Made by a program: the position numbers and the translations under genes. A stretch of DNA of 64,000 bases from Promethearchaeia archaeon (GTDB lineage: Archaea; Asgardarchaeota; Lokiarchaeia; Sigyniarchaeales; SOKP01). Each line of letters opens with the position of its first letter. Within the stretch, counting starts at the first letter, position 1. Under the pieces are notes generated by a model. It saw nothing but the letters and a program-made list of their open reading frames with translations, was not told where the DNA came from and did no database searches. This document shows, piece after piece, positions 15,344-59,958 of the stretch. The stretch lies in assembly GCA_029856045.1 (NCBI GenBank), contig JAHQWG010000043.1, positions 32,001 to 96,000 of the forward strand, given 5' to 3'.

Positions 15344-15814
15344 TCAATCGAATACCTTTTCTAATACAATTATTATAGGTTTGAAGCCCCCTCCTCTACA
15401 GATAACATCTTGTACTTTTTTATCTCCATCATATGCAAAATTAATTCTTATTCTATCAACACCCCATGATCTTAAGAGTTTAATAGCTCTTTCAGCCAAT
15501 ATCTTCCCTATACCTTTTCCAAGATATTCTTTCTTGGTTGCCCAACTTTCAAGATACCCAATATATTCACCAAGTGAAGATTTTTTAGCTTCTAATACTC
15601 CTAGAGCTACAACTAAACTATCAAATTCAGCAACTAATGTCATTCTCTTTAAATTGGGTTTAAATTGCCGTAATCCGGAAGATTCCTTCCATTTATCTTC
15701 ATTAAATCCCATATCATATAATTCTGATAATTCTTTTAAAATTTCAAGAGTTTCTTGATAATCAGATTTTCGATAATTTCGAATTATAATTTTATCTTCA
15801 TCCATAATCAACAC
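15344..15814 (-). CDS. GNAT family N-acetyltransferase
   Basis: IIIRNYRKSD and acetyl-CoA motif A YLGKGIGKIL. Confidence 0.85.
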   Translation of the reverse strand: MLIMDEDKIIIRNYRKSDYQETLEILKELSELYDMGFNEDKWKESSGLRQFKPNLKRMTLVAEFDSLVVALGVLEAKKSSLGEYIGYLESWATKKEYLGKGIGKILAERAIKLLRSWGVDRIRINFAYDGDKKVQDVICRGGGFKPIIIVLEKVFD

Positions 15815-15830
15815 TATATTTATTTAAATT

Positions 15831-16856
15831 TTACATATATTTTTTTATTTCAATTAGTTTTGAAAAAATTCTTAAATTTTTATCTTTTTGATTTATATTC
15901 AAAATATAAGAATCTATATGGGGATACAATGGAGCTACAAAGAGCAACTCCTCATGCGGATACCATTCATCAACAAATTCATTCAATATTTCTTTCTCAA
16001 AAAATTCTCTAACATGAGAAATAGTTACTTGTATAGAATGCATATTGGCTTCAGAAGAGTTTTCAATAACAACTTCTAATTCTTGACTGTTTTTTGAAAG
16101 AGTTATTTCTGAAATTTTAAAAGGATTAAAAGTTCCTTGTAAAATTTTGGCAGAAGCTGCTTTTTCAAATAGATTTACATCATCATACGGTGCCCCTTCA
16201 AATCCTTTTAATGAAGAAATATAGAATCCCTTTAGTGCTAAAAAAGACATAGCTTTCTGTTTTTTAATTGAATCAGATTTGCTGTCCATTAACACATTTC
16301 CAAAATATTTTAAGATGGTATTATGAATATCGAAATTTATATTTTGTTTAATTTCATCACTTTTTTTTATATTCTCTAACACCGATTTGTTTTTAATGAC
16401 TACACTTTTAGCAATTTCTCCTTCAATTAATTTCCATAGAACATTACCATAATTTTTTTGTATAATTTTTAAAAGCTTTTTGATTATATAACTTCCAAAA
16501 ATTTCAATTTCATTAGGTAGGGCTACGATAATAACAATAGTTTCAGGAGTTTCTTTCTTTAATCCAGCTCTTTGTTTTTTTCGTTCAGATTTCACTAAAA
16601 ATTTTTTTGCAGAGTATATTTTATTTTTATATTCTAGATCCACATGATCTAATACTTCTTGTTCTTTAAAATCTAAAAACCAAATTGAATGGATATTTAT
16701 TGGTCGCATTGCTTTTGGATTATATATTAATTTTTCATCTGGATAAGATAATAATGGCATATGACCTCTCATTTCATCGAAATAAAGTAAGAAGACTTCA
16801 CACAGATTCAAACCAGAAGAATCTTTTATGCTTTTATCGTCAAATATGTCAGCCAT
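15831..16856 (-). CDS. uDENN/longin-like N-terminal domain plus C-terminal Ig-like module
   Basis: VFLLYFDEMRGHMPLLSYP resembles the uDENN/longin start; ATG at 16856 preferred over TTG at 16901; C-terminus aligns with those of 27913..29406 and 30424..31620. Confidence 0.55.
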   Translation of the reverse strand: MADIFDDKSIKDSSGLNLCEVFLLYFDEMRGHMPLLSYPDEKLIYNPKAMRPINIHSIWFLDFKEQEVLDHVDLEYKNKIYSAKKFLVKSERKKQRAGLKKETPETIVIIVALPNEIEIFGSYIIKKLLKIIQKNYGNVLWKLIEGEIAKSVVIKNKSVLENIKKSDEIKQNINFDIHNTILKYFGNVLMDSKSDSIKKQKAMSFLALKGFYISSLKGFEGAPYDDVNLFEKAASAKILQGTFNPFKISEITLSKNSQELEVVIENSSEANMHSIQVTISHVREFFEKEILNEFVDEWYPHEELLFVAPLYPHIDSYILNINQKDKNLRIFSKLIEIKKYM

Positions 16857-17179: not shown

Positions 17180-17626
17180 CTAAATGTTGTTTAATGGTCC
17201 TAATTTCTTAATTTGATTTGTAAAAGTAGTTACTAATTCAGCAAATTTTTTCCCTTCACTTGCGGATATCCATTCAAGCCGAAATCTATCCTTTAATCCC
17301 AAATATTTTAAGATTTTCATTAACCGTTCAAATCTATCTTTTGTAAATTCATTCCCGCTAATATAGTGACAATCTCCTATATGACACCCAGTAACTAACA
17401 CACCATCTACATTATCCTTAAAAGATTTCAGAATAAAAGCTGGTTCAACTCGACCAGAACACATTACTCGAATTATTCTAATAGAGGCAGGATACTGAAA
17501 ACGAGATACTCCAGCCAAATCAGCTCCAGCATAGCTACACCAATTGCAGCAAAAACATACAATATTAGGTTTAAATTCCCTATCTTTTTTAACTTGTTTT
17601 TTATCTGATTTTTCTACGATTTTCAT
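17180..17626 (-). CDS. mvhD: MvhD [2Fe-2S] subunit, all-Cys paralog
   Basis: [38 protein letters not shown]. Confidence 0.93.
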
Positions 17627-17645
17627 ATTTTTTCATTTATTCTCA

Positions 17646-20600
17646 TTAATTTTTTAAATAAGCCTTAATCATCGCATTTATTTGTTTAAAACTAAAATGT
17701 GAAATAAATATGGCCGAATTAGGGCATTGAACACCACAGGTACCACATCCTTTACATAACGCAGAATTAATATTGGATTTTTTTAAACAAAGTGTATAAT
17801 CTTCAAATGTTTTTTCAACCTCAATTAATTCTATTGCGTTATATGGACAAACGTCAGCACATTTCCCGCAGCCGATGCAATAATCTTCAATTACCTCAGC
17901 AACAAGACCAGAAGTTTTCATTTCTTTAGCACTTAAAATCCTGATAGCTCTTCCAGCTGCACCATTTGCTTGAGCTATTGATTCTTGAATATTCTTAGGC
18001 CAATGAGCGCAACCACATAAAAAAACTCCATCTGTTGCAAAATCAATAGGTCTTAGTTTAACATGAGCTTCTAGAAAAAAACCACTTTGATCTTGCGGAA
18101 CTTTCAGCATTTTTGATAATTCTTTAAAATTTTCAGGTGCAATCATAGGTGTAGCTAAAATTATAAGATCGCCATAAAATTCTACTTCTCCTTTTAAATT
18201 GTGTTCGAATAACGTAATTTTATAATTAAATTTTCCATTTTTAGTTTTTGAAATTATAGGAAGTTTATCCAATGAATATCGTAAGAATAAAGCGTTTTTT
18301 CTTGAATCTCTATAAAATTCTTCATTTCCTTTTTTGGACATTTGAAGATCTCGATAAATTAAAATTAATGCCAAATCAGGTTTTAATTTCTTTAAGATAT
18401 TAATATTCTTTAATGCATTTGTACAACATATATTGGAACAATATGTTATACCCTCTTTTTGTCTGGAATTCACACATAAAATAAATGTAATACTTTTAAT
18501 ATTATCTAGCCATTCTATATTTTCTTTCCTTAATTTTTGCTCTAATTCAAGTTGTGTAATAACATTTTTTTCTTTTTTATAATTGTATATTGTTTCCGGT
18601 ATCAACTCATTCGCTCCAGTTGCAACAATTATTATTCCAACTTTTATATTATTTACTTTATTTCCTTTAGTGGTTATTATAACATCATAATTTCCAATAT
18701 ATCCCCTAATTTCCGTGATATTTGAATTCAAATAAATATTAATGTTTGAATGTGATTTTACTTTATTTACAAAAGGTTCTAAAAATTCTGAGGCTTTTTG
18801 ATATCCTGGGAAAATTTGATATAAATTATTTAAATTTCCACCAAGTTTAGATTCCTTTTCTACAAGATGGGTTGTAAACCCTTGTATTGCAATATTTAAT
18901 GTGGCTATTAAACCAGAAATGCCACCTCCGATTATTAATGCCTCTGGAGTAATTGATAGTTTTGATTCTTTTTGTGGTTTTAATAATCTCGATTTTGCAA
19001 CAGCCATTTCTATGAGGTCTTTGGCTTTCTTAGTTCCATCCACTTTTTGTTCCATATGTACCCAAGAACATTGATCTCGAATATTAACCATTTCAAAAAG
19101 ATATTTATTCAAACCCGCTTCTTCACATGTTTCTTGAAATAATTTTTCATGGGTTCTAGGCGTACAGGACGCAACTATAAATCTATTTAAATCATACTCA
19201 GCAATTAATTCCTTAATTCTAGTTTGGGAATCACTAGAACATGAATATAAATTATCTACTGCAACAGTCACATTAGGTAATGTTTTGATATATTCTAAAA
19301 CCTGGGGAACATCTACATATTTTCCAATATTTATTCCACAATGGCAAATCATAACACCTATGCAAGGTTCATCTTCTAAATTTATCTTTTTTTCAGGTAC
19401 AGATACTACCTTTTCTTTTAATAGAGTATTTCTCACTAGATATAGTAATGTTGAAACCTTATTTGCTACTCCACTTGCATCAGCAACTGTTTCAGGGATA
19501 TCTAATGGTCCTTGACAAAAACCACATAGAAAAATTCCTTCTTGTTCAGATGATAATTTATCATATAATGTCTTTTCTTTAAAAAACTTATATTTATCAA
19601 CGTTTATTCCTAATATTTTGGCAACCTTCTCAGAATCCTCAGATGGTACTAATGGTGTTGCTAAAACTACTAAATTTGCCCTTAAATCATGAAATTTCCC
19701 ATCATCGAGATCTTCATATTTTATAATTAAATCTTTAGTCTTAGGGTCTTCTACTATTTTGCTAATTTTTGAATTAAAATATTTAACCCCATACTCATCT
19801 TGTGCTCTTTGAGTATATTCATAAAAATTTTTCCCATATGCCCTCAAATCATGCCTAAAAATATAACATTCTGAAGAATTCGAATGTTCTTTAGTAATTA
19901 TTGCTTCTTTTGCTGTATACATACAACAGACACTAGAACAATAAGGAATTCCAATATGAAAATCTCTAGAACCAGCACATTGTATAAAAGCAATTTTATG
20001 GGGTTCTTTCTCATCTGATAATCTTAAAACGTGCCCCTCGAATGGACCAGAAGCACATAAAATCCTTTCATACTCTAAAGAGGTAATAACATTTTCATAT
20101 TTATAACCCCAATTATCTGGAAGTTTAGAAGCTAACATATCAAAACCAATAGCAACTATAATTGCCCCAACTTCTATTTGGACTTCTTCTGGTTTCTGCT
20201 CAAAATTAATCGCTTGGGCTTCACAGATTCTTTCACAAACTCTACATACCCCTTTATTCAAAAATAAGCACATATCTGAGTCTATTAAATAAACTGGAGG
20301 TACAGCTTGTGGAAAGGGGATATAAATAGATTTTCTTCTCCCCAAATTCATATCAAAAATATTTGGAGCCTCAATCTTAGGACATTTCGAGGCACAATCT
20401 CCACAACCCTTACATTTATCCTCATCCACATATCTGGGTTTTTTTAAAATTTTTATAAAAAAATGACCTGCATGACCTGATACTTCAATGACTTCTGAAT
20501 AAGTCATTAATTTAATATTTGGATTTCTAAAAACCTCAACCATTTTTGGAGCAAGAATACATAAAGAACAATCATTAGTAGGAAATGTTTTGTCTAATTG

Positions 20601-20771
20601 AGCCATACGTCCTCCAATTGAAGGAGTCTTTTCTACTAGAAATACTTTAAATCCCATTTCAGTTAAATCTAAAGAGGCTTGAATTCCTGCAATACCACCA
20701 CCAATTACTAAGGCTGCTCCGATTAAATCATCGGTTTGACTTTTTTGTGATGAGTTTTTACTTTTACTCAT
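17646..20771 (-). CDS. hdrA: Large HdrA-like flavoprotein with two FAD modules, all-Cys
   Basis: Two GGGIxG motifs, QLDKTFPTNDCSLC, internal CHCGINI / SCTPRTHE / NIRDQCSWVH, ferredoxin motifs; 1041 aa. Confidence 0.88.
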   Translation of the reverse strand: MSKSKNSSQKSQTDDLIGAALVIGGGIAGIQASLDLTEMGFKVFLVEKTPSIGGRMAQLDKTFPTNDCSLCILAPKMVEVFRNPNIKLMTYSEVIEVSGHAGHFFIKILKKPRYVDEDKCKGCGDCASKCPKIEAPNIFDMNLGRRKSIYIPFPQAVPPVYLIDSDMCLFLNKGVCRVCERICEAQAINFEQKPEEVQIEVGAIIVAIGFDMLASKLPDNWGYKYENVITSLEYERILCASGPFEGHVLRLSDEKEPHKIAFIQCAGSRDFHIGIPYCSSVCCMYTAKEAIITKEHSNSSECYIFRHDLRAYGKNFYEYTQRAQDEYGVKYFNSKISKIVEDPKTKDLIIKYEDLDDGKFHDLRANLVVLATPLVPSEDSEKVAKILGINVDKYKFFKEKTLYDKLSSEQEGIFLCGFCQGPLDIPETVADASGVANKVSTLLYLVRNTLLKEKVVSVPEKKINLEDEPCIGVMICHCGINIGKYVDVPQVLEYIKTLPNVTVAVDNLYSCSSDSQTRIKELIAEYDLNRFIVASCTPRTHEKLFQETCEEAGLNKYLFEMVNIRDQCSWVHMEQKVDGTKKAKDLIEMAVAKSRLLKPQKESKLSITPEALIIGGGISGLIATLNIAIQGFTTHLVEKESKLGGNLNNLYQIFPGYQKASEFLEPFVNKVKSHSNINIYLNSNITEIRGYIGNYDVIITTKGNKVNNIKVGIIIVATGANELIPETIYNYKKEKNVITQLELEQKLRKENIEWLDNIKSITFILCVNSRQKEGITYCSNICCTNALKNINILKKLKPDLALILIYRDLQMSKKGNEEFYRDSRKNALFLRYSLDKLPIISKTKNGKFNYKITLFEHNLKGEVEFYGDLIILATPMIAPENFKELSKMLKVPQDQSGFFLEAHVKLRPIDFATDGVFLCGCAHWPKNIQESIAQANGAAGRAIRILSAKEMKTSGLVAEVIEDYCIGCGKCADVCPYNAIELIEVEKTFEDYTLCLKKSNINSALCKGCGTCGVQCPNSAIFISHFSFKQINAMIKAYLKN

Positions 20772-21958
20772 TTTTTAGATACCTCCTTATTTTGTTGTGA
20801 GGGTATAACTTCAATAACGTTTTCCAAGAGATTTGATAAATCTATAACATTAATATCTTGGACAGTTTCTGTATCATTTTGAAGGCATCTAAAGTGAATT
20901 TCACATTTTGGACAAGTAGTGACTAAATTATCAGCAACATCTTTAGCTTCCAACATTCTATGATATCGAAGTGCTTTTGCTTTATCAGAACAATTTAGCC
21001 AACAACTTACTCCGCAACATAAAGAATTGGATTTATTGTGAACCATTTCATTATATACATAACCTACTTTTTCCAATTCTTTAAAAATATATCTTATTTT
21101 TTCATATATATTAAAAGATTTTGGTAAAAATCTACTTAATCTACATGGATCATGATAAGTTAATTTGAGTATTTTTGTGTTTTTCTTTTCCTTTTTAAAT
21201 TTAATTTTATTTTCCTTCAATTTCTCATAAAGATATTCAACAAGGTGTTTAACCTTAACATTAAAATTCTCAAACATCGAAGGATAATCAATTTTAAGAG
21301 TCCTATACCCTTCTGCACAAGAAGTTATTATTAAAGAAGCTCCACTTCTTTCAAAAGATTTAATATTATGGATTGCTAATTTTTTAAAAGCTTCGATTTT
21401 ACCTTGCCACAATAAATCATGACCACAACATTTTTCATCTTTCAACAAAACTATTGGTTCATTTTCAATTTTGCATAATATTTTTAAAGTATCTACAGCA
21501 TTATTCATTGACTCATCGAATTCATAACTAAAAAGGGGAGCACATCCTACAAAATATAAGATATTTCCCTTTTCTGATACCTCACACCCAGAAGGAACCC
21601 ACTCAAAAGTCTTTTCCGGAGTAATATTTTCTTTACTCATAATTTCCGAAAGAAGTGTATAGAATCCCTTATGAGCAATTTTAGGCATAATTCCGGCATC
21701 TAACATTTTATTTCTTGCATCACGTACTATTTCAGCAAAATTAACTTCATATGGACATTTTTCAAGGCAAGAATTGCAAGTTAAGCAATCCCAAAGCATT
21801 CCACTTTCAACAATTCGATCTTCAAAACCTTCAATGATCAGTTGTATTATCCTACTAGGAGTGTATTTTTGGATTCTTCCCATTTGGCAAATGCCACTAC
21901 ACATAGCACATTGATAGCAATTGTTAAGATATTCTCTTAATTTTCCTTTTATAATCAT
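20768..21958 (-). CDS. HdrD/GlpC-like Fe-S protein (HdrC-like N-terminus plus two CCG domains)
   Basis: CYQCAMCSGIC, CLTCNSCLEKCP, CCGH, YHDPC, CCGV, TCPKC. Confidence 0.88.
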   Translation of the reverse strand: MIIKGKLREYLNNCYQCAMCSGICQMGRIQKYTPSRIIQLIIEGFEDRIVESGMLWDCLTCNSCLEKCPYEVNFAEIVRDARNKMLDAGIMPKIAHKGFYTLLSEIMSKENITPEKTFEWVPSGCEVSEKGNILYFVGCAPLFSYEFDESMNNAVDTLKILCKIENEPIVLLKDEKCCGHDLLWQGKIEAFKKLAIHNIKSFERSGASLIITSCAEGYRTLKIDYPSMFENFNVKVKHLVEYLYEKLKENKIKFKKEKKNTKILKLTYHDPCRLSRFLPKSFNIYEKIRYIFKELEKVGYVYNEMVHNKSNSLCCGVSCWLNCSDKAKALRYHRMLEAKDVADNLVTTCPKCEIHFRCLQNDTETVQDINVIDLSNLLENVIEVIPSQQNKEVSKK

Positions 21959-21983
21959 AGAATTGTCAGAAATCTGAGTAATT

Positions 21984-23096
21984 TTAAAATTTAACTCCTA
22001 AGTTTTTTTGCGATAAATTATATCTATCTTCTTTATATTTTGAAAACTGAATTAATTTTTCTAACATTTTATCTCTTTTTCCTTCTAAATCCTCTAAAAC
22101 TTTTATATATCCCTCATTTATAGCGGATTTAACAATATTTGTTCCAAGTTTGGTTCTAGGTATAGTTGTTGTATATTTTTCAGGTGATGATAATCCACCA
22201 AATGAAATATCTGCATAAATATTAGTAAAATCATTACATGCATTACAAGCGGAACGAATATAATCTGATAATTCATTAAACGATATATGCTGAATAACTT
22301 CACTTCCTTTTAATTTTATTAACATATCTTCCTTAATATTTAATTTCTCAATCTCATCAATTTTTAAATTAAATTGAGTTTCAAATTTCTCTTTTTTATC
22401 TTTACCCATTGTAAAATTTCCATAACAAAATAATCCAAGAAGATATTTTATATTTTGAGAGGGGGTAACCCCCATTTCTTGCATGCATCTTATCGTATAA
22501 ATTTGGCAAGGCGTTCCTATAACAGCTAACTTTTTAAATTTATATCTATTTAATGCCATAATTGTAGGACTATAAGTACTAAAATTGGCAATTTCTGTTA
22601 CTTGTGAAGAAATATCAAAATGAGAACCTGCAGCTAAAATTAAATCATCTTTAGATTTTGCAATCATTGAATCTCTCGAAAATGGTCCCAACTTTTTTGA
22701 AACGATTGCTCCATCAATTAAATTATGTTCTAATAAATACAATAATATAGCAGATACTACTCCACCATCAGTTCCATTTTTTAAGAGATCTTTATCTAAC
22801 GCTTGAAATGAATATATCTTTTCATAATTGCCAAGTGGTTTGATATAATTATATTGATTATTTAAATCATTTTCTAATACTTTAGTTTGTGGACAAATAT
22901 GATAACATATTCCGCACTCTAAGCATTCATTTTCATTTATATATTGTGGTGGCAAATCTGGTTTAATAAAATCAATAATCTTATAATCAGCAGAACTACA
23001 AAAACTTACACACCCACCACATAATTGACAAATGCCTTTATCATGAACTTCTTTAATTAAATCTTTAAAATTTTTTATTGGTTTATCTTGACTCAT
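21984..23096 (-). CDS. FrhB/FpoF-like F420-dependent oxidoreductase subunit with 2[4Fe-4S] domain
   Basis: CQLCGGCVSFC, CLECGICYHICP, DGGVVS, GTPCQ, GLFC, CNACNDF, ADISFG. Confidence 0.88.
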   Translation of the reverse strand: MSQDKPIKNFKDLIKEVHDKGICQLCGGCVSFCSSADYKIIDFIKPDLPPQYINENECLECGICYHICPQTKVLENDLNNQYNYIKPLGNYEKIYSFQALDKDLLKNGTDGGVVSAILLYLLEHNLIDGAIVSKKLGPFSRDSMIAKSKDDLILAAGSHFDISSQVTEIANFSTYSPTIMALNRYKFKKLAVIGTPCQIYTIRCMQEMGVTPSQNIKYLLGLFCYGNFTMGKDKKEKFETQFNLKIDEIEKLNIKEDMLIKLKGSEVIQHISFNELSDYIRSACNACNDFTNIYADISFGGLSSPEKYTTTIPRTKLGTNIVKSAINEGYIKVLEDLEGKRDKMLEKLIQFSKYKEDRYNLSQKNLGVKF

Positions 23097-23113
23097 TTTT
23101 TAATAAAATTTTA

Positions 23114-24595
23114 TTATTTTTTTACATCGAATTCAATTTTTTTACATTTTGAATTTTTAATTCCTGAAATTTTCTTAACCAAACCGAATCCAGGTTTTAC
23201 TTCAGCTAAATCCTTAACTTCTACTAAATTGCCATTTATTAATTTATTAAATAAATCATTCCCAACTTTTGTTCTTGTAATAACTGAAGACCAGCCTGCA
23301 CTAGAACCTATTGAACCTACTGAAATATCTGCAAATTCGGACGTTAAATCACTACAATAATGGCATACATCTCTTGCTAAGGAAGTTACTTCTTTTAATG
23401 GAACTTTGGCTTCTTCTCCATTTTTATCTTTGATAATAAATTTTCCTCCACTAATGTCCATTTTTAAAATGTTCTCTAATTTCTTATTAAAAATTTCAGT
23501 GCTTATTTTGATAACATTATCATAGCTGAATGATTCCATGCAGAATAAACCAATAGTATATTTAATATTATTAAAAAAAGATGTTCCAATTGGATAAATA
23601 CTTCCTTTTTTGAGTGCTAACATCATACATGGAGTTCCAACGACTGCAATTTTATCAAATTTTTGTGCTTCATTCAAAATTGTTAAACTTGGAGAATTAG
23701 CATATTTTGTACCAGCGGTTTTATAAAGATCATCAACATTCTCAATTATAATAGGTTTTGGCCTCCAAATATCTTCAGAATGGGTTACTGCTATCGCAGC
23801 ATCAATTTCTTTTTCTTTTAGTAAATAATATAACAATGTTGTTATTATACCACCATCTTGGCATACTTCTTTAATTTCATCACTTTTTGTACTTGCAGTA
23901 TATGCATTTATATAATAATTACTTGCGGCACCATCCTTCAAATTAGGATTTAATTTATTTAAAACTGTAAAAATATGCTCAGATGGAAATGACCTCGGGC
24001 AAACAGAAAAACAAAGTCCGCATTTAATGCAAGTCTCAGAATCAATTTTAAGATCATCTGCAGTTACTGTTATTGAGCCAACTGGGCATATTGATGAACA
24101 ATAACCACAATTACAACAAAAATTATTCTCAAATACTAAAGACACTGGCTCAAAATAATTTTCTCGAAAAGAATTATCAAGGGATTTGGCTTGATATCGA
24201 ATAATTTCAATCTTAATTTCTTTATCTATCAAATTTCCCTCTTTATTTTTTACTTTTTTAATTTCTGTCTTTATTTCAATTAATTTTTCAACATAACCTT
24301 GTTGGGTTAAATATTCAACTGTTTGTACTAATTTTTTCTTATCATATTCCACTTTCTCCACTATTTCTTCAAGAGTAAGCAGAGGAAGCCCTATTAATTT
24401 TTTTAATATTAAATTTCTTTCTGTCTCAGCATCGAGAAGTGAATCTAAAATAAAATTAAAATCTTCCTCACTAAATCTTCCAAATTTTAAAATATCATCT
24501 TTTCCTTCATATAATGCACGAATTTGAAAATTACTTATAGCGTTATATGTAGATTCCATTAGATTTTTTAGATCAGTATTTTCTATAAGATTCAC
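23114..24595 (-). CDS. FrhB-like subunit with N-terminal helical/winged-helix extension and 2[4Fe-4S] domain
   Basis: CCNCGYCSSICP, CIKCGLCFSVCP, QDGG, AGTKY, GTPC, GLFCMESF, CHYCSD, ADISVG. Confidence 0.88.
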   Translation of the reverse strand: MNLIENTDLKNLMESTYNAISNFQIRALYEGKDDILKFGRFSEEDFNFILDSLLDAETERNLILKKLIGLPLLTLEEIVEKVEYDKKKLVQTVEYLTQQGYVEKLIEIKTEIKKVKNKEGNLIDKEIKIEIIRYQAKSLDNSFRENYFEPVSLVFENNFCCNCGYCSSICPVGSITVTADDLKIDSETCIKCGLCFSVCPRSFPSEHIFTVLNKLNPNLKDGAASNYYINAYTASTKSDEIKEVCQDGGIITTLLYYLLKEKEIDAAIAVTHSEDIWRPKPIIIENVDDLYKTAGTKYANSPSLTILNEAQKFDKIAVVGTPCMMLALKKGSIYPIGTSFFNNIKYTIGLFCMESFSYDNVIKISTEIFNKKLENILKMDISGGKFIIKDKNGEEAKVPLKEVTSLARDVCHYCSDLTSEFADISVGSIGSSAGWSSVITRTKVGNDLFNKLINGNLVEVKDLAEVKPGFGLVKKISGIKNSKCKKIEFDVKK

Positions 24596-24619
24596 CTTCC
24601 TAATTAAATTTTTTTTAAG

Positions 24620-24698
24620 CCCCCATATCCCTTGCAGGGATGTCCCAATAAAATTTCTTAATTTTAAGCTTTAATTTTAAAGATCATTCAAATGGGGG
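24620..24698 (-). ncRNA. Eukaryote-type (type II) SECIS element
   Basis: RNA reads CCCCCAU-UUGA-AUGAU-CUUUAAAAUU-AAA-G-CUUA-AAAU-UAAG-A-AAUUUUAUUG-GGAC-AUCCCUGCAAGGGAU-AUGGGGG. UGAU/GGAC core with tandem G.A pairs, 10-position helix II (two U.U), unpaired AAA, minihelix III, helix I CCCCCAU/AUGGGGG; directly 3' of two UGA-containing genes. Confidence 0.85.
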
Positions 24699-25155
24699 TT
24701 TTAGTTTTTAATTTTTTATCTGCATCTTTTATTTCTGCCTTAAAAACTGCTTGATCTGTTTTTAATGGGTTCAATCCCAATTTTTCTATTTTATTTACCA
24801 TATCTTCGACCGATTTTACAAATTTTACAGCTTCAGCTCCAGTGCAGTTATACATGTTTACTCGGTCTCCTCCCAAACCACGCCTATCTAGAATTCGCCT
24901 AACAAATTCGACATGTTTTGCAGCGATAAAGTTTCCAGTTTTAAATTCACATTGATTTTCTAGTCAGCCTACAACCATTACTCCATCGGCACCATTATTA
25001 ATTGCATAGATTAGGTGTTTTATATCAACTCTACCTGTACAGCGCAGACGAATAATTTTTACATTGGGACTATATTTCAATCTTGAAACACCAGCTAAAT
25101 CTGCAGCACTATAACCTCATTTATTACAAGCAAATGTAATGATATTCATTTTCAT
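24688..25155 (-). CDS. vhuD: Selenocysteine-containing MvhD/VhuD (155 aa, Sec13 and Sec64)
   Basis: MKMNIITFACNK-U-GYSAADLAG...RLRCTGRV...VVG-U-LENQC; TGA at 25119-25117 and 24966-24964 align to Cys in paralog 17180..17626. Confidence 0.92.
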
Positions 25156-25160
25156 ATATC

Positions 25161-25166
25161 TCACCT
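25161..25166 (-). promoter_or_regulatory. Shine-Dalgarno site of vhuD
   Basis: AGGTGA five bases upstream of the ATG at 25155. Confidence 0.65.
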
Positions 25167-25178
25167 GAATTTTTCGGT

Positions 25179-27122
25179 TTATGCATTTTCCTCCTTTACT
25201 AATGCTAAGACTTGATTAAATATTTGCTCATCTGTATAATATCTAATTTGTATTGCTTGAGTTGGACAACAAGTTGCACAGATTCCACATCCGTCACAAT
25301 TGATCTCATCGACCTCAGCAATTTTTCCTTCAGGTACAATAATAGCATTCTTTGGACAATTTTTTTCGCAGCGACAACAAGAAATACAATTTTCTTCATC
25401 AACAATCGCACATATTAATTCAAGCTCCGCTTCTCCCTTGGATGTTAATTCTGCAACCTTACTTGCGGTTGCTCTCGCTTGAGAAACCGAGTATGATATA
25501 TTTTTTGGTCCTTGCGCAAAACCACAAATATAAATCCCTAGATATTTTGTTTCTTGAGGACTTAAGCCAAAATGATGTTCAGTCAGGTATCCATTTGTAT
25601 CATAATCAATTCCAAGAACATCTGCTATTTGTTTCGTTCCTTTAGATGGTAATACTGCAGTTGATAAAACTACTAAGTCTGCATCAATTTTTATTATCTC
25701 ATCTGTTAATGAAGAATATACTCTTACCTTGAGATTTTTGGTTTCAGAATCCTCTATTAGTTCTGGAACTTTACCTCGAATAAAGTCAATACCTTTATCA
25801 CGAGTTCTCATATAGTATTCTTCAAAGTTCTTTTCAGATGCTCTTATATCAATGTAGCAGATGGTTATATGGCAATCAGGGATTTCTTCTTTAAGTAATT
25901 TAGCATTTTTTAAAGCGATCATGCAACACACACCAGAACAATACGCTCTTTCTGTATCTCTCGAGCCAACACATTGAATAAATAATATTTCTTTAGGTGT
26001 TTTTCCATCTGATGGTCTTTTTACATGGCCCATTGTTGGACCATTTGGTGCTAATATCCTTTCAAGCTGGATTTCGTTTATAACATTTTGATATTCTCCA
26101 TATCCATATTCTATAGGATTATATAAGTCCCAACCCGTTGCAACTATTATTGTACCCACTTCAATTTCGACATATTCAGGTTCTTGACTCAAATCAATTG
26201 CATGTGGCTCGCAAGCATCTACACAGGCATATCATTCAACGCAAGATTCTTTTTCAAGATCATAAACAAAAGGAATAGCTTGCCCAAAACATATATCGAT
26301 ACATTTTCTTGAACCTAAATTTTCTTGCCAATAATTTGGTATGTAAATTGGACATACTGGCGTACAATCTCCACAACCATTACACAAATCTTCTATAACA
26401 TATCTAGGTTTTTTCTTTATCGTAACTTCATAATTTCCAACATATCCTTCAACTTTATCAACTTCACTATAACTAATAATTTCAATATTTTCATTTCGAT
26501 TAGCTTCAAGCATTTTTGGACCAAGAATTCATATAGAACAATCATCAGTTGGAAATGTTCGATCTAACTGAGCCATTCTGCCCCCAATTGTAGTTTTACT
26601 CTCTATTAAATACACCCTTATTCCTTGATTTGCCAGATCTAATGCCGCATTTAATCCAGCGATTCCTCCACCAACTACCAAAGTAGCTTTTTTTATAGGA
26701 ATAATTTTTGTCGGTACTATTTCCAATCTTTTAGCCCTTTCATAACCTGCTCTGCTTAAAATCTTTGCTTTATTGGTTGCTGAAACTTCGTCTTCAGTAA
26801 TCCAAGAACATTGTTCTCTAATATTTACCATTTGAAAATAAAATTTACTAAGTCCTGCCCGTTCTAAAGACTCTCTATAAATCGGTTCATGAGTTCTAGG
26901 AGTTCAAGCTGCCGCTACAACCCGATTTATCTTTTTTTCTTTGATATCATCCATTATTAATTTCTGCCCTTGTTCAGTACATAAAAAACTAAAGATGCGA
27001 CTTGTTTCAATATTATCAAATTGTTTCATATACTCTGCAACTTCAGAACAATTAACTTTCGCAGAAATATTCAAGCCTCATTGACATGCATAATATCCAA
27101 TGCGTAAAATTTCTTTACTCAA
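25179..27122 (-). CDS. hdrA: Selenocysteine-containing HdrA (647 aa; Sec15, Sec73, Sec198, Sec297)
   Basis: Single frame from TTG 27122 to TAA 25179 with TGA at 27080, 26906, 26531 and 26234, in contexts CQ-U-GLNI, AA-U-TPRTHE, DDCSI-U-ILGPKM, CVE-U-YACVDAC; joins three ORF-track fragments without frameshift. Confidence 0.92.
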
Positions 27123-27912: not shown

Positions 27913-29406
27913 GTGAGTGAAGAAATAAATAAAGTAAAATCTGAATCTAAATATGAACATTCTTTTGAATATATAAGAAAAAAATTAGAAGGAAAAAAAG
28001 ATTCATTTGGAAAATTAGTAAAGGAAGTTATAAGAACAGGTGTTTGTACTCATTGTGGCACTTGTGCAGCGATTTGCAGTGCTCTTGAATGGGATCCAAT
28101 TTTAGAGGAACCAAAATTAATTGGAGTATGTTCTGGGTGTGGAATTTGTTATAATCAATGTCCAAGGACTATTACTAATCCCGAACAACTTGTTGGTCAT
28201 TTTAAAACAGGTTATGTTACAAAAAGTGGAATTCCTGAAGTTATTGGTGGTCAGGACGGAGGAACCGTTACGAGCTTATTATGTTATTTATTTGATGAAA
28301 ATTTAATTGATGGAGCAGTTGTTACTAAAAAAAATCCAAATAAACCATGGGTTCCGTTACCTCAACTTATTAATACAAAAGAAGAAGCTGTTGAAGCTGC
28401 TGGTTCTATTTATAGCCATTCACAAACAGTTGATTCTTTAATTGACGGGATTAGAAATAACATGGGCTCTATCGCATTTGTAGGAACTCCTTGCAACATA
28501 GATGCTGTGTTTAAAATGGAAAGTAGTCCACTTGGAATGTTAAAATATTTTATGAGAGCACATGTTTTTAAAATTGGATTATTTTGTATGGATTCATTTT
28601 CACATGAAGCATTATTACCATTTTTTGAGAAGGAGGGAATTAAATTAGCGGAAATAACAAAAATGGATATCAATAAAGGAAAATTTTATCTTTACAGAGG
28701 AGATACAGAAGTAAAATCCTATAAAATAAGGGAATTAGATAAATTTAAATCATCAAGTTGCAATTTTTGCACAGATTTAACTTCAGAAAATGCTGATATC
28801 TCGGTGGGTTCTGTTGGAAGTGGCCCGAAGAAAAACACAGTTTTAGCACGATCAGGTATAGGAGTAGAAATTATAGAGGATGCTATAAAAAAGGGATATT
28901 TATGTTCTGAACCATTTTCAGTGGAAAATTTAAATTCTGTCTTGTTCTTAGCAAGATTAAAGAAAGTATCTCAATATACAGTTCTTAAAAGGAAGGTTTT
29001 TATAGTTAAAGATATAGATAAAAAAGAACCATTTAAACAATCACCAGAATTGAAAGAGCAAGCTGAGATCGCAACGCCGTTTGGAACAAGAAAAATTTTA
29101 AAGGTTACTCAAAAACTGAATGAAAGTCAAACGGCTACTGCAATTACAATAGAAAATGTTATTGGATATCTTCTTGAAAATTTACAAATTAGGGTTGCTT
29201 TTGTGGAAGAACTATTTGAAAAACGACCGTGGACTACAACAATAAAAGAAATTTTTCCTTTTGAATCTATTCAGATTAATTATCCATTAGAAATTAAAGA
29301 TGGAGAACACGATCTTGGAGAAATAATTATAGATATTTCTGATTCACATAGAAAACTCTTTTTTAAGAAATATTCTCTTAAACCAAAAGAAAAAAAATCA
29401 AAATAA
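27913..29406 (+). CDS. FrhB-like F420 oxidoreductase with C-terminal Ig-like module
   Basis: CTHCGTCAAIC, CSGCGICYNQCP, QDGG, GTPC, GLFCMDSF, CNFCTD, ADISVG; about 140 extra C-terminal residues. Confidence 0.85.
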   Translation: MSEEINKVKSESKYEHSFEYIRKKLEGKKDSFGKLVKEVIRTGVCTHCGTCAAICSALEWDPILEEPKLIGVCSGCGICYNQCPRTITNPEQLVGHFKTGYVTKSGIPEVIGGQDGGTVTSLLCYLFDENLIDGAVVTKKNPNKPWVPLPQLINTKEEAVEAAGSIYSHSQTVDSLIDGIRNNMGSIAFVGTPCNIDAVFKMESSPLGMLKYFMRAHVFKIGLFCMDSFSHEALLPFFEKEGIKLAEITKMDINKGKFYLYRGDTEVKSYKIRELDKFKSSSCNFCTDLTSENADISVGSVGSGPKKNTVLARSGIGVEIIEDAIKKGYLCSEPFSVENLNSVLFLARLKKVSQYTVLKRKVFIVKDIDKKEPFKQSPELKEQAEIATPFGTRKILKVTQKLNESQTATAITIENVIGYLLENLQIRVAFVEELFEKRPWTTTIKEIFPFESIQINYPLEIKDGEHDLGEIIIDISDSHRKLFFKKYSLKPKEKKSK

Positions 29407-29484
29407 TAGATAAAAAAATTTTTCAACAAAATTTTTATTAAATCAAATTAAAAATTTAAATAAGAATAAACGAGATATAAAAAA

Positions 29485-30396
29485 ATGAAAATTAGTTTAA
29501 TAGGATTATCTGGTTGTGGAAAAACCTCTTTATATTCGGTAATATTCGCGGAAAAAACACCTGAAGAAACAAAGGGATTATCTCCAACGATACTCTATGA
29601 AACAAGAAGGCATCCCTTTTTAGGATTAGAAATATCAATTTTTGATTTTGGAGGTCAAGACCAATACATCAAAGAATATCTTGATAAGCCGAAAATATTC
29701 ATGGGCACGGATGTTCTCGTGCCTGTCGTAGATTTACACGATCCAAATTCTTTTGATAAATCAAAAAAGTATTTTGAAGATGTTTTAAAGTTATATAAAG
29801 ATAATTATCAGAAACCAAAAGTATGTCTATTTTATCATAAATATGATACTGAAGATTATCAAAAGGAACTTTTAGATACAAATATAATTAAAGCTAAAGA
29901 GTTTTTTTCGGACATGTTCAAAGATTATAACCCACAAACTTTCCTAACGAGTATCTATGATCAGCAAAATTTAACAAAGATTTTCAGAGATATATTAATG
30001 GGATCTTATTCAGAATTAAAGGGTCATATAGAAAAAGCGGAAAAGCACTTACAGGAGATAAATGCACGAATTATTATTTCCGATATATCAGGAAATGTTT
30101 TGGTTCATAATGTTCAAGGAGTTTCAAGCGGACTATCATTAAGGGCAGACTTAAGAGACTTTATCAGTTCTTGTAATGTAATTAGAGAGAATGTCTTTTT
30201 ATCTGATTCTGCAGAGTTTAAAGGAAATTCAGAAGAAGGTAAAGAGCTTCAACTATATATCTTTAAATACATATTGGCTGTTTTAATAATGAAATCGGAA
30301 AAGAAATTGGATCCTGAATCGAGTGAAAAGATAAGAGTTCTCCTCGAAGATATGAAATTATTTTCTGATATAATTGTTTCTATCCATTCTGAATAA
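29485..30396 (+). CDS. Rag/Gtr1-like small GTPase with C-terminal roadblock-like domain
   Basis: G1 GLSGCGKT, G2 SPTI, G3 DFGGQ, Rag-type G4 HKYD and G5 TSIYD; C-terminal IIISDISGNVL. Confidence 0.85.
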   Translation: MKISLIGLSGCGKTSLYSVIFAEKTPEETKGLSPTILYETRRHPFLGLEISIFDFGGQDQYIKEYLDKPKIFMGTDVLVPVVDLHDPNSFDKSKKYFEDVLKLYKDNYQKPKVCLFYHKYDTEDYQKELLDTNIIKAKEFFSDMFKDYNPQTFLTSIYDQQNLTKIFRDILMGSYSELKGHIEKAEKHLQEINARIIISDISGNVLVHNVQGVSSGLSLRADLRDFISSCNVIRENVFLSDSAEFKGNSEEGKELQLYIFKYILAVLIMKSEKKLDPESSEKIRVLLEDMKLFSDIIVSIHSE

Positions 30397-30423
30397 TTTT
30401 TTTAGAGCGATCAAACGATAAAA

Positions 30424-31620
30424 ATGAAATTAAGTCTTGTTAATGATGATAATATCATTTTGGGAGATTATCTTAGTGTAATTACTAAAATTTTTTTTGA
30501 AGAGACAACTGATATCTTGTGGGGAGGTATAAAATTAATTTCTAAAAACCCATGTAAAAGAGACTTAATTATAACCAAATCTGAATTATTCAATCAAGGT
30601 ACTTTTGAGCCTGGTGAATATATCAGAAATAGATCACAACTTATTAATCCCAAAGTAGTTCCAACAATTCCAGCAAGAAATATTCACTACTTAGTTAAAA
30701 TGACTTTAAGAATTAAAAGTCCTCTTAATTCTCAAAAAGAAATAGAAATTTTTAAAGAAAATCCCATTAAAATTCTTCCAAAAGGGAATATGTTTCAAAA
30801 TAGAACTCCCACCCCAATTAAATTAATTATGTCAGGGATGAATATTGAAATTTCTAAAGATATTTTTAAACCAGGCGAAACTATTAAGATTGATTATAAA
30901 ACAGATAATTTAACATTATTTCAAATAAGATTAAAACAGAAGACTAATTTAATCTGTATTTGTGAACCTTTTGGTGAACAATGTGGAAGTATTGAGGAAT
31001 TACCTCCAGTGATTGCGGGTGTAGCAAAAACATCCAAAACAGATCAAGGTTTTCTATTGATAAAACTTCCAAATCACGCTGAACCAAGTCATGAATATCT
31101 TTGGGAACCTCAAGAAAAAGATCAGTGGGGAATTAAATTTGGGGATTATTCTAAATGGTTTCTGGAGATAATAGGAAATAGGAAGAGAGAAGTTGGGGGA
31201 GATACAATCTCTTTTGAAATCCCAATTATTGTAATCCCTCAAAAGGAGCAAGAAATAGTCGATAATAGTTTATTTAGAGAAAGAGAAGAGGGTTTAGAAT
31301 TATTTGAACCCCCTCCTGCAATAAAAAAAGGTATGAATATAATTTCTATTGATATTAATAAAGATACTTCTTCAAGTACATTTATTTATAAATTACGAAT
31401 TAAAAATAATCTTAAAGATACTCTTAACGGTGTTACCATAGAAAATTCAGGTATTCAACAAGGTCTATTTGAGACTTATAAACATATGATGGGATTTAAT
31501 ACATGGTTACCAGGAGAAGAAAAATCAATTGAATATAAAACAAGACAAGAAATTGATACCTTAATTTCTACAATCGAAACAAATTCTCAAAAGCAAATTA
31601 GAATTCAAACAATATTATGA
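30424..31620 (+). CDS. Arrestin-fold (alpha-arrestin/Vps26-like) protein with C-terminal Ig-like module
   Basis: Two beta-sandwich repeats (ILGDYLSV...PGEY...VVPTI...IHYLVKMTL; KDIFKPGETIKI...IKLPNHAEPS...FEIPIIVI). Confidence 0.6.
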   Translation: MKLSLVNDDNIILGDYLSVITKIFFEETTDILWGGIKLISKNPCKRDLIITKSELFNQGTFEPGEYIRNRSQLINPKVVPTIPARNIHYLVKMTLRIKSPLNSQKEIEIFKENPIKILPKGNMFQNRTPTPIKLIMSGMNIEISKDIFKPGETIKIDYKTDNLTLFQIRLKQKTNLICICEPFGEQCGSIEELPPVIAGVAKTSKTDQGFLLIKLPNHAEPSHEYLWEPQEKDQWGIKFGDYSKWFLEIIGNRKREVGGDTISFEIPIIVIPQKEQEIVDNSLFREREEGLELFEPPPAIKKGMNIISIDINKDTSSSTFIYKLRIKNNLKDTLNGVTIENSGIQQGLFETYKHMMGFNTWLPGEEKSIEYKTRQEIDTLISTIETNSQKQIRIQTIL

Positions 31621-31879: not shown

Positions 31880-33085
31880 ATGAGAAGTATATTCCCAAAT
31901 TTAACGGAACAAGAAATAATGTGGAAAAATGAAGTTGATGAAACGTTAAAAAATGAGCTCGCTCCTTTTATTGATGACATTGAAAATGGGAAAAAGGAAA
32001 TGTGGGATATTATAAAATCTATTGGTAAAAAAGGATATTGTGGTGTTACATTTCCCAAACGATTCGGAGGGTTGGGACTTCCCACGAAATATGAATTAAT
32101 ATTATCTGAATCTATTTCTGCTTATAGTTTACCAGTTGATATGGCAAGATTAGCAGGATCTTATCCAGCTTTTTTAATTCGAATGTTTGGTAAATCAAAA
32201 CAACTAGGAAATTATGTTGAAGAGTTAGTAAAAGGAGAAAAAATTGGAGCTTTTTGTTTTACTGAGCCTGATGCAGGGAGTGATTTATCACGAATGAAAA
32301 CAATTGCTGAGAAAGATGAAAATGCCGATGAATATATCTTAACAGGTGAAAAGCGGTTTATTGTGAACGGTAGTATTGCAGATTATCTTGTTATATATGC
32401 CCGTAATGGAGCTTTTATAATAGAATCAGCGTGGGATGGTTTTGAAGTTATTGAAGAATATCAATTGATGGGACTTCACGGACTACATCTCGGGCATTTA
32501 AAACTTAATCAAATAAGAATCCCATTAGAAAATGCGTTATTCTTCAAAAAACTAGAAAAAGATTCACCCAAACGCTCATCCGGAAAAACATCATCTATTG
32601 ATAGTTTGCAAAATATGCTTGCTCCTGAGAGAGTTGCATTATCAGTTCAAGCTCTAGGAGTCGCAAAGACAGCATTATATACTGCTATAAAATACTCTCA
32701 AGAAAGGGTTCAATTCAAAAGACCTATCTCAGCATTTGAGGGAATTAGCTTTAAAATTGCAAAAATGGCTACTAAATTTGAAGCAGCAAAATCTTTATTA
32801 AATCGGATGGTTGATAAGATGGAAAATGGAACATTAGCAGCAATGACTAAATTATTTTGTTGCCAAATAGCATTTGAAGTTTGCGATGATGCACTTCAAA
32901 TTTTAGGCGGAATCGGATATACCAATAAATATTCTATTGAAAGATGTCTAAGAGATGTTCGCTTATTACGGATTGGGGGAGGAACTGATGAGATAATGAT
33001 GTATGTAATTCAAAAGGGAATATATAAAGGGGAATTAGAAAAAGAAACGATATCTGAAAAGGAAAAAATAAATTCTTTTTGGTGA
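31880..33085 (+). CDS. Acyl-CoA dehydrogenase
   Basis: FCFTEPDAGSD, GEKRFIVNG, RVQFKRPI, QILGGIGY, IGGGTDEI. Confidence 0.92.
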   Translation: MRSIFPNLTEQEIMWKNEVDETLKNELAPFIDDIENGKKEMWDIIKSIGKKGYCGVTFPKRFGGLGLPTKYELILSESISAYSLPVDMARLAGSYPAFLIRMFGKSKQLGNYVEELVKGEKIGAFCFTEPDAGSDLSRMKTIAEKDENADEYILTGEKRFIVNGSIADYLVIYARNGAFIIESAWDGFEVIEEYQLMGLHGLHLGHLKLNQIRIPLENALFFKKLEKDSPKRSSGKTSSIDSLQNMLAPERVALSVQALGVAKTALYTAIKYSQERVQFKRPISAFEGISFKIAKMATKFEAAKSLLNRMVDKMENGTLAAMTKLFCCQIAFEVCDDALQILGGIGYTNKYSIERCLRDVRLLRIGGGTDEIMMYVIQKGIYKGELEKETISEKEKINSFW

Positions 33086-33113: not shown

Positions 33114-33929
33114 TTGTCAAAAGAAGAGATGCAAGATTTTTTTTTTGAGGATCCAGTCTCTGGTAAATTAAAAAAGAGTCTTGGAGATACATCTGTAGAA
33201 TATTTCTATTTTGATGAAAATTTTATCATTGAGACTAAAAATAAACAAGTTGCAAATGCCGCGTTATTAAAAGGTAAATCTCAATTAACATTAAAAGATA
33301 AAAAATATGAATTAAAACAGTTTGATATGTTCTTCCTACCTCCGAATACTTCGGTTCAAATATTACCAAAAGAAATAGATTTCATAAATAATAAAATTTG
33401 TATCGTAAAAACGCCTATTATTAGTACAGATATAAATCCAGATTGTAAATTTGATTTACAGAGATTTGAATTTAATAACTTTTTACCTCGAGGTGAATTG
33501 AGCGACAATAAAAAAATGGGAACATTTAGAACCGTTTGGACCGCATTTAAAAATGGTTATTTTATATCAGGATTAACTGATATTCCATCCATATCCTTAA
33601 AGGAAGGAGTTGTAACAAGCGTTAATATTGAAAAATCAACAGATGGGAATTTAGAAATTTACCCTCACATACATCAAGGTTTTCCCGAAGTTTATATTTT
33701 TTGCATCCCCGATAAAACTACTGCTGTTACACAATATTTAATAAATAAGAGTGGAGAATCCATTGTCAGGGAGCGATATAATGGTGAAGGATTACTCTTC
33801 CCTGGAGAACTTGGTCATATGAATTTTGCTAAACCTAATTATAAAAATCTAAAATATTGTATTTATATGTGGATAATTGGAACCTATGGAAAAGTAAAGG
33901 AAATTAAACCTATAACACTAAAGATTTAA
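33114..33929 (+). CDS. Cupin-fold protein (KduI/IolB-like)
   Basis: FDMFFLPP, PHIHQGFPEVYIF and a later His (GHMN). Confidence 0.45.
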   Translation: MSKEEMQDFFFEDPVSGKLKKSLGDTSVEYFYFDENFIIETKNKQVANAALLKGKSQLTLKDKKYELKQFDMFFLPPNTSVQILPKEIDFINNKICIVKTPIISTDINPDCKFDLQRFEFNNFLPRGELSDNKKMGTFRTVWTAFKNGYFISGLTDIPSISLKEGVVTSVNIEKSTDGNLEIYPHIHQGFPEVYIFCIPDKTTAVTQYLINKSGESIVRERYNGEGLLFPGELGHMNFAKPNYKNLKYCIYMWIIGTYGKVKEIKPITLKI

Positions 33930-33937
33930 TTTTTTTC

Positions 33938-34345
33938 TTAAATTTTGAAAAAGATTGTGTTATTTTTTGATTTCCAAAAAATTAAACCCTTTAAAATTAA
34001 CAACTCTATTTCTCTCTTAATAGTATCTATATCTAAATTAATATTTTTATCTTTTAAATATTCAAAAATTTCTTTGTAAGATGCTTTTTCCTTTATTTTT
34101 GAGAAAGGTAATAAATCTCTACAGATATTTTTACCTCGAACAATGGATTGTGTATTAGAATAAAGCATGAAAAAATTATGAGCAAGAGCATCATTAAATT
34201 CATCATCATCATAATTTTTCATTTTTTCAAGTAAACTTAATGCTTGTTCAAATTTTTCTTCCTGGATTAATTTTTCAGCTATGGATAATTCCTCTTTAAA
34301 ATTGTTTGTATGAACCTTTTCTTTTTTTGAATTCATATCATCCAC
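33938..34345 (-). CDS. Helical hairpin plus winged-helix protein (PCI-like)
   Basis: AEKLIQEEKFEQALSLL; SYKEIFEYL...IKREIELLILKGLI...TIFF. Confidence 0.45.
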   Translation of the reverse strand: MDDMNSKKEKVHTNNFKEELSIAEKLIQEEKFEQALSLLEKMKNYDDDEFNDALAHNFFMLYSNTQSIVRGKNICRDLLPFSKIKEKASYKEIFEYLKDKNINLDIDTIKREIELLILKGLIFWKSKNNTIFFKI

Positions 34346-54180: not shown

Positions 54181-54212
54181 TAGAAGAAAAAAATATTAGA
54201 AATGATAAAAAA

Positions 54213-54614: not shown

Positions 54615-54651
54615 AAAAAGTCAATTTATTTTAAATATTTTTATTCTAAAT

Positions 54652-54900: not shown

Positions 54901-54938
54901 ATTATATCCACTATTTTTATTTAATTAAATATAACATA

Positions 54939-59873: not shown

Positions 59874-59958
59874 AATTTTTTTTTTCCCCCCCTTTTTTTT
59901 TTTTACTCTTATATTTCTTTGAATTAGAATAAAAAATATAAATAGATACAGGAGAAAA

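Follow-up and report, generated by a model that had tools for sequence, protein, structure and literature searches.

Eukaryotic Rag GTPases are nutrient switches, in which an obligate RagA/B-RagC/D heterodimer controls TORC1. An Asgard operon of LAMTOR-like, Rab-like and DENN proteins has been published together with NPRL2-like longins (Liu et al., 10.1101/2020.10.19.343400). For the Asgard longins that carry a GP motif the GTPase partner was left open (PMC12290439), and Asgard GTPases are hard to match to their GTPase-activating proteins (GAPs) from genome layout (PMC10933270). Here, we describe a Rag-like GTPase with a defined set of partners, encoded in a window of 64,000 nucleotides from a Promethearchaeia archaeon (assembly GCA_029856045.1, contig JAHQWG010000043.1, positions 32,001 to 96,000). 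Its gene lies between those of an FrhB-family flavin/Fe-S oxidoreductase (FRHB) and an arrestin-fold protein (ARR), and a fourth member, a longin-domain protein (LONGIN), is encoded about 11 kb away. FRHB, ARR and LONGIN all end in one Ig-like β-sandwich domain of about 95 residues.

The shared C-terminal domain

The common origin of the three domain copies is indicated by HHalign, which gives 97.1% for FRHB-LONGIN, 96.5% for ARR-LONGIN and 91.5% for FRHB-ARR, while none of the 25 control pairs exceeds 1.1%. A joint profile, built from the FRHB, ARR and LONGIN families themselves, finds exactly these three carriers in the host genome (next match, E value 0.011), and three paralogous sandwiches per genome is also the usual count elsewhere. 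Among 1.8 billion representatives, full-domain matches have FRHB-, ARR- or LONGIN-type architectures or are fragments, the rest being weak partial matches to repeat proteins. In the FRHB copy the N, FE and PxE residues are invariant across classes.

No named family was recovered for the domain: no PDB sequence match falls below an E value of 0.17, ESM features lead only to unnamed or CARDB-like clusters (below 0.85), and structure searches return generic Ig folds, with no adaptin-ear entry prominent. BBS1 is among the structural matches (Z score 9.3, root-mean-square deviation 3.2, 94 residues aligned), tied with many generic Ig folds. An earlier note on this DNA overlooked the domain, which is the strongest link among these genes, as well as a CBS-domain partner found in other lineages.

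Gene order and distribution

The earlier note had proposed a putative operon of three co-oriented genes. The coordinates of the open reading frames bear out the shared orientation, and the genes are separated by 78 and 27 nt. The arrangement was then followed through a survey of 301 Asgard genomes in 30 families and, closer to the host, of 41 relatives. The neighbourhood is kept across several Asgard classes: FRHB and the GTPase gene are adjacent and co-oriented, 9-137 nt apart, in 48 of the 50 fetched loci that contain both (a count that includes some loci fetched more than once from one genome). In the host family the two genes are adjacent in 21 of 21. This order is not due to chance. The junction of the GTPase gene with ARR is usually interrupted in the host family (adjacent in 3 of 33); there ARR is mostly split off by insertions and LONGIN lies elsewhere.

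Longer strings are found in other families. The order is FRHB-GTPase-ARR-LONGIN-CBS in family f4, where LONGIN directly follows ARR; CBS-LONGIN-X-FRHB-GTPase-ARR in f12 and f23; and CBS-LONGIN-CBS-FRHB-GTPase-ARR in f6. Family f5 has a fusion of longin, shared domain and four CBS domains beside ARR-sized and Rag genes. A CBS gene or fusion accompanies LONGIN in six families other than that of the host (f4, f5, f6, f12, f23 and f26). Because distant families hold these larger gene strings, the three-gene set is a remnant of a larger module. Two candidate members were rejected. A HEAT gene often precedes FRHB in the host family but was not found in this genome or in distant families, and the secreted C25-peptidase gene that separates LONGIN from FRHB in f12 and f23 is a lineage-specific passenger. 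Downstream of ARR in family f23 (loci L151-L155) lie four tandem paralogues of about 425 residues and of no identified family.

The GTPase was detected in seven of the 30 families (f1, f5, f6, f12, f22, f23 and f26) and the shared domain in all of these and also in f17, which has FRHB only; in the other 22 neither was detected. Every family that holds the GTPase has a flavin/Fe-S oxidoreductase with the shared domain. Among the 41 relatives FRHB, the GTPase, ARR and LONGIN occur in f1, f3 and f4, and all four were undetected in f2, a family of the host's order (0 of 11 genomes). Sequence, fold and genome comparison together establish the shared tag, its co-inheritance and usual co-loss with one Rag-like GTPase, the company of CBS proteins and the tagged oxidoreductase.

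Exchange of the tagged enzyme

The tag is not confined to FRHB. Among 22 genomes of family f26 it is carried by FRHB in 11 and by an NfnB/GltD-like flavin/Fe-S protein in ten, with one fragment; the tag of the NfnB/GltD-like protein matches the shared domain at 98.1% in HHalign. The NfnB/GltD-like carrier occupies the position of FRHB, as the last gene of a GTPase-nuoE-nuoF-nuoG-like-nfnA-nfnB string. Adjacency of FRHB and the GTPase gene survives rearrangements and in this family persists even tail to tail. ARR was not detected in f26, which has two longins in tandem, only the first of them with the arginine loop described below. Since an NAD(P)-type enzyme replaces FRHB here, the redox link outlasts the enzyme and is probably not F420-specific; to judge from these sequences, this argues that evolution has kept a tagged oxidoreductase and could dispense with F420 itself.

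Two explanations of the exchange found no support. Loss of F420 synthesis as its cause is unsupported, CofE-family genes being present in 22 of 22 f26 genomes. Nor is derivation of the NfnB tag from the FRHB copy supported: the longin-type profile gives this tag a higher score, and the tree does not resolve its origin.

The GTPase

Assignment of the GTPase to the Rag type, as first proposed from motifs, is supported by Pfam, where Gtr1_RagA scores an E value of 2e-26 (93 bits) versus 2e-9 (38 bits) for Arf and 1e-8 (35 bits) for Ras. The PDB matches are RagA/Gtr1 (2e-21), RagC (1e-11) and Arl3 (3e-9). All G motifs and the catalytic Q58 are intact. Of the HKxD and TSIYD motifs cited earlier, H118, K119, D121 and T155-S156 are invariant in 77 orthologues; the final D is not, and is E in 40 of the 77. 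The tail (residues 176-303) is roadblock-like, as the earlier note had it, with a TM score of 0.67 to Robl_LC7 over 121 residues (ESM Atlas); by ESM features its nearest relatives are eukaryotic Gtr1/RagA fragments (0.84), which is a lead only. Sequence identity across Asgard classes is 47-70%, so that the protein is unusually conserved.

The host genome encodes 15 strong Rag-like paralogues including this GTPase, which is not the top scorer. The module itself holds one GTPase gene and no A/C pair. A second copy (contig C8:3469-4377, locus L034), 54% identical, occurs only in the host genus and lacks module neighbours; it is a possible heterodimer partner. Copies without the first ~50 residues, and hence the P-loop, occur at L032 and L033 (genus g4) and at L004, in genomes that have neither FRHB nor ARR, and G016 has a similar N-terminal truncation; they may represent either decay or a non-catalytic form. 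In f26 (L165 and L167), the module has a second GTPase cluster next to it, made up of two more Rag-like GTPase genes and a probable longin-type gene at distances of 2-6 kb from the module GTPase. No GTPase fusions were found among longer proteins, which is weak evidence.

The oxidoreductase

Pfam assigns FRHB to FrhB_FdhB_N (E value 5e-20) and FrhB_FdhB_C (4e-40), together with a 2x[4Fe-4S] domain, and its PDB relatives are 8riu_B, Fsr and FrhB. Members of the FrhB family have four cluster cysteines, an FAD-binding QDGG helix and the F420-site motifs GSV and IxKGK (PMC3591093). In 62 orthologues of FRHB 12 cysteines and the QDGG, GLFC and GSVG motifs are invariant, among them the cluster cysteines C194, C225, C283 and C286 and the S300-V301 pair. 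The IxxGK turn on the F420 side is kept, with I253 and G256 invariant, K257 present in 60 of 62 and K255 in 45 of 62. Because these cofactor motifs are conserved in orthologues, FRHB is predicted to be an intact flavin/Fe-S protein and not a degenerate sensor. Use of F420 by FRHB is plausible, since the host genome contains CofD- and CofE-family genes; the FrhB family also includes non-F420 members (HCAR). Nine FrhB paralogues are present in the host genome.

The longin protein

LONGIN was the 'uDENN-like' partner of the earlier note, which assigned it a role as GAP or guanine nucleotide exchange factor (GEF). Its link to the module is real and it is a longin, whereas its description as a DENN protein was wrong: the model contains only helices and a β-sandwich after the longin, with no DENN core such as follows the longin in FLCN and SMCR8, and no DENN Pfam match was found in 26 members. 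In the VIA structure search the best matches of the fold are FLCN (Z score 10.3, root-mean-square deviation 3.3, 144 residues aligned) and GATOR1 (8fw5_B, Z score 10.1), with Sec22 tied (10.0).

A basic loop between the last two longin strands offers a candidate arginine finger; it is the putative equivalent of the arginine-finger loop of FLCN, NPRL2 and SMCR8. Its residues are conserved in 59 (R92), 58 (K94), 56 (R96) and 58 (G98) of 65 sequences. The arginine finger of FLCN, NPRL2 and SMCR8 sits in a longin loop (PMC7464330, PMC8213707), and GAP longins carry a GP motif before strand 2 (PMC12290439). With its FLCN/NPRL2-type fold and arginine loop, LONGIN looks more like a GAP than a GEF.

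The arrestin-fold protein

The arrestin fold that had been suggested for ARR is borne out by its model (pLDDT 84), in which residues 1-275 match arrestin, VPS26, Spo0M and Rgp1 in Foldseek and VIA searches. The VIA matches have Z scores of 14.0 for Spo0M (root-mean-square deviation 2.0, 117 residues aligned), 13.7 for VPS26 (6.3, 240 residues), 13.0 for Rgp1 and 13.0 for arrestin. No significant Pfam match was obtained (Arrestin_C, E value 0.054). In the model a disordered linker joins the two-lobed arrestin fold to a sandwich of seven strands. Cysteines C44, C178, C180 and C187 are invariant in 104 of 104 orthologues and are likely, from this conservation, to form a metal or thiol site. The C-terminal PPxY motifs of alpha-arrestins are not kept, [LP]PxY being present in 1 of 104. 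Arrestin-fold proteins are cargo adaptors; Rgp1, of the Ric1-Rgp1 Rab6 GEF, illustrates that the fold can serve a GTPase, and TXNIP that it can read thiol redox. A divergent second copy of ARR in genome G026 (L036:7141-8304, minus strand) lies inside an hdrA cluster, with the four cysteines kept and the FE motif lost.

Proposed mechanism and alternatives

The module genes very probably act in a common pathway, an interpretation that is well supported. For the nature of that pathway we favour, at slightly less than an even chance, a GTPase-centred sensor module that ties a Rag-type switch to redox and energy state. The GTPase would dimerize through its roadblock tail, and the shared domain, on a flexible linker, would be a docking tag bringing each partner to the dimer. 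LONGIN would be the GAP, either as a homodimer or paired with an arginine-less paralogue, and the CBS partner would make its activity dependent on AMP, ADP or ATP. Redox input would come from the tagged oxidoreductase, which would be of the F420 type here and of the NAD(P)/ferredoxin type in one lineage, and ARR, with its four-cysteine site, may be a nucleotide-state-dependent adaptor or an exchange-factor subunit. The reading of the earlier note is partly supported: its conserved neighbourhood, Rag-like GTPase, arrestin fold and link to the longin hold, whereas the report of redox state from FRHB to the GTPase is a hypothesis, for control could run the other way.

Docking was modelled by co-folding two GTPase copies with the FRHB domain, which scored 0.52 against 0.01 for the best of three controls, with at least 74% of contacts common to the runs and a partner pLDDT of at least 69. 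This is weak support: in a calibration set unlike this job, 58 of 80 solved pairs attained the pass mark and so did 2 of 110 mismatched pairs. Docking of the domain on the GTPase dimer is a lead from modelling.

Several observations weigh against the sensor model. The co-fold score lies in the range up to 0.60, which contains only seven of the 80 solved pairs and both mismatches and is more often wrong than right. With 15 Rag-like paralogues in the genome, the target of the shared domain could be another one. LONGIN has G-H in place of the GP motif of GAP longins (G31 in 62 of 65, the next residue mostly H), and no CBS gene lies beside it in the host family. The enzyme exchange in f26 is probably a single event (one clade with a support of 92 in a quick tree). 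Kin share gene order, so the distribution and adjacency counts are not independent. FRHB and its domain persist where no GTPase was detected, in f17 (three genomes), G133 and G300, and LONGIN persists without the GTPase in G005 and G023; these partners therefore have lives of their own, which counts against any obligate link.

The pathway could also run in the opposite direction, with the oxidoreductase as output. The GTPase and the arrestin adaptor would then act on the F420/NAD(P) enzyme, by positioning, assembling, switching or turning it over, at an electron-bifurcating complex (HdrA-MvhD, or NuoEFG-like/NfnAB), with the signal coming from the longin and CBS proteins. We regard this as credible though somewhat unlikely. 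The established adaptor role of arrestin folds would suit it, as would the retention of every catalytic motif in FRHB, its survival without the GTPase in some genomes, the fact that most lineages have the module next to hdrA or nfnAB genes and, in f26, a tagged NfnB encoded as one subunit in a multi-subunit oxidoreductase operon whose first gene is that of the GTPase. However, the tag is also present on the longin and the arrestin, neither of which is cargo-like, and no membrane anchor is seen in the four host proteins (maximal 19-residue hydropathy 0.9-1.8).

A scaffold, in which the shared domains bind each other to build an enzyme-arrestin-longin heteromer and only the longin touches the GTPase, is distinctly unlikely. 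GAE domains pair in this way in the BBSome, the usual count of three sandwiches per genome would suit such an assembly, and BBS1 is among the structural matches, though not apart from the generic folds. The variation in carriers (two longins and no ARR in f26) is as compatible with competition for a single site as with a fixed trimer, and the weak co-fold points to the GTPase. That there is no functional redox link, an ordinary F420 enzyme in an old gene block having gained its neighbour's Ig-like domain by local recombination, is very improbable: large syntenic blocks are indeed common in the host family (cupin, HAD, acyl-CoA ligase-like and ribosomal protein neighbours recur) and FrhB paralogues are many, but the FRHB domain keeps its invariant residues across classes, FRHB and the GTPase gene stay adjacent through rearrangements, and a second, unrelated oxidoreductase acquired the same tag at the same locus.

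The fullest form of the sensor model would be a complete pre-TOR energy switch in Asgard archaea, with a CBS-tuned FLCN/NPRL2-like GAP, a Rag GTPase that reads electron-carrier reduction directly through an exchangeable docked flavin/Fe-S enzyme, and an arrestin output. Taken whole, it is unlikely; if true, it would identify what an archaeal Rag works with and what feeds into it, and would date the pairing of Rag with longin GAPs before eukaryotes.

Gene neighbourhood in the window

The features are collected in Table 1. The hdr locus that the earlier note placed beside the module is indeed there, as a divergent run starting about 790 nt upstream of FRHB, and hdrA/frhB genes also flank the module in families f6, f12, f22 and f23. 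The HdrA at the FRHB-proximal end of this run has four in-frame TGA codons that are predicted to be read through, all at cysteine-type positions (U15, U73, U198 and U297); a multi-selenocysteine HdrA was already described for Lokiarchaeota (PMC4989117). A promoter and terminator scan found sites no more numerous than in shuffled sequence, the scan model being bacterial and the host archaeal. No RNA data set was listed as containing the module, and a contig spanning the GTPase-ARR junction was rejected as transcript evidence, its source run being marked 'probably DNA'.

Directly after LONGIN lies a GNAT acetyltransferase gene, which is also near LONGIN in f3 and f4; the acetyltransferase is a possible further member of the module. 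A cupin-like gene and a small gene lie downstream of ARR in many host-family genomes, often flanked by small GTPase genes; in this window an acyl-CoA dehydrogenase gene separates ARR from the cupin-like gene. Farther away, a 1077-residue protein has an N-terminal hydrophobic segment, SBBP beta-propeller repeats, a TSP3 repeat, one likely membrane span, a helical region, an Ig-like stretch and a C-terminal zinc ribbon; it is not a carrier of the shared domain. In a chaperone cluster, read from translations only, a catalase gene splits dnaK from dnaJ.

Table 1. Features of the module and its surroundings, in window coordinates
Feature	Position	Strand	Description
FRHB	27913-29406	+	497 aa; FrhB-family flavin/Fe-S oxidoreductase
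FRHB layout			2x[4Fe-4S] domain 43-86; FrhB core ~95-350; variable linker; shared C-terminal domain (Pfam/NCBIfam)
Shared domain, FRHB copy	29089-29376	+	residues ~393-488; N415, F435-E436, P449-x-E451
GTPase	29485-30396	+	303 aa; RagA/Gtr1-like
GTPase motifs			G1 GxxGxGKTS; G2 T35; G3 DxGGQ (Q58); G4 HKxD; G5 TSI[YF] (alignment)
GTPase roadblock tail	30010-30393	+	invariant R220, D222, R224, R234, E235
ARR	30424-31620	+	398 aa; arrestin/VPS26/Spo0M-fold protein
Shared domain, ARR copy	31324-31617	+	residues ~301-398; seven-strand sandwich in model
LONGIN	15831-16856	-	fourth member, outside the segment covered by the earlier note
LONGIN layout			longin 15-190; helical part; linker; shared domain (model, pLDDT 78)
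LONGIN basic loop	16563-16589	-	S90-x-R92-x-K94-x-R96-x-G98; candidate arginine finger
Shared domain, LONGIN copy	15837-16130	-	HHalign and model
hdrA(Sec)-frhB-frhB-hdrD-hdrA-mvhD run	17180-27122	-	between FRHB and LONGIN
HdrA	25179-27122	-	647 aa
GNAT acetyltransferase	15344-15814	-	
Acyl-CoA dehydrogenase	31880-33085		
Cupin-like gene	33114-33929	+	
Small gene	33938-34345	-	
1077-aa protein	46910-50143	-	
Chaperone cluster	53000-61760		grpE (opposite strand), dnaK, catalase, dnaJ-like

Comparison with known systems

No description of the module was found in a literature search whose coverage left out most subscription journals, and none was found of PDB entry 8yl2. Like FpoF and 8riu_B, FRHB combines a 2x[4Fe-4S] domain with the FrhB core, and it keeps the cluster cysteines, QDGG, IxxGK and GSV of the FrhB/FpoF/FqoF/Fsr-N group (PMC3591093). 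It differs from these enzymes in its extra C-terminal domain, in the lack of a hydrogenase or dehydrogenase partner gene on its strand and in the K75-Y76 loop, whose Lys is I, V or L, and it scores under every NCBIfam cut-off. ARR shares the two-lobed β-sandwich of the arrestin-fold adaptors (VPS26, alpha-arrestins/TXNIP, Spo0M and Rgp1) at an identity of 10-14%, and is distinguished by the absence of PPxY, the four-cysteine site and the shared domain as a third domain. As in AMPK gamma and other CBS adenylate sensors, CBS pairs are present, here adjacent or fused to the longin in the six families named above; the module has no kinase, the host family lacks the CBS component and an adenylate ligand is putative.

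The Asgard operon of Liu et al. likewise encodes a GTPase with a longin/DENN-type regulator, for which GAP and GEF roles were proposed. Its GTPase is Rab-like and stated to be distinct from Rag, its roadblock protein stands alone, and the consulted parts of that source make no mention of FrhB, arrestin, CBS or the shared domain. Asgard Rag-like GTPases are seldom paired with a GAP or GEF by gene order (PMC10933270; PMC12290439). In the present module a single orthologous GTPase has a defined partner list, a candidate arginine finger and a small putative docking domain, all of which should be soluble and expressible. It thereby becomes directly testable what was sensed by Rag switches before there was TOR, and linkage of a redox enzyme to a small GTPase through a transferable tag would, if true, give the Rag family a new kind of input.

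By analogy, the module would work most like Rag with GATOR1 or FLCN-FNIP, yet it falls outside those complexes, because it has no A/C pair, no DENN core and no GP motif. In common with Rag/Gtr and its longin GAPs (GATOR1 NPRL2-NPRL3 for RagA/B, FLCN-FNIP for RagC/D and SEACIT for Gtr1/2), it has a G domain with RagA-type motifs and a roadblock tail, a longin that FLCN and GATOR1 match best in structure, and arginines conserved in a loop; the f26 pair of one arginine-bearing and one arginine-less longin recalls FLCN-FNIP. In contrast to them, it has a single GTPase gene and G-H for GP, the module contains no TOR, Ragulator or DEPDC5 gene, its partners share a private β-sandwich, and a redox enzyme is itself a member.

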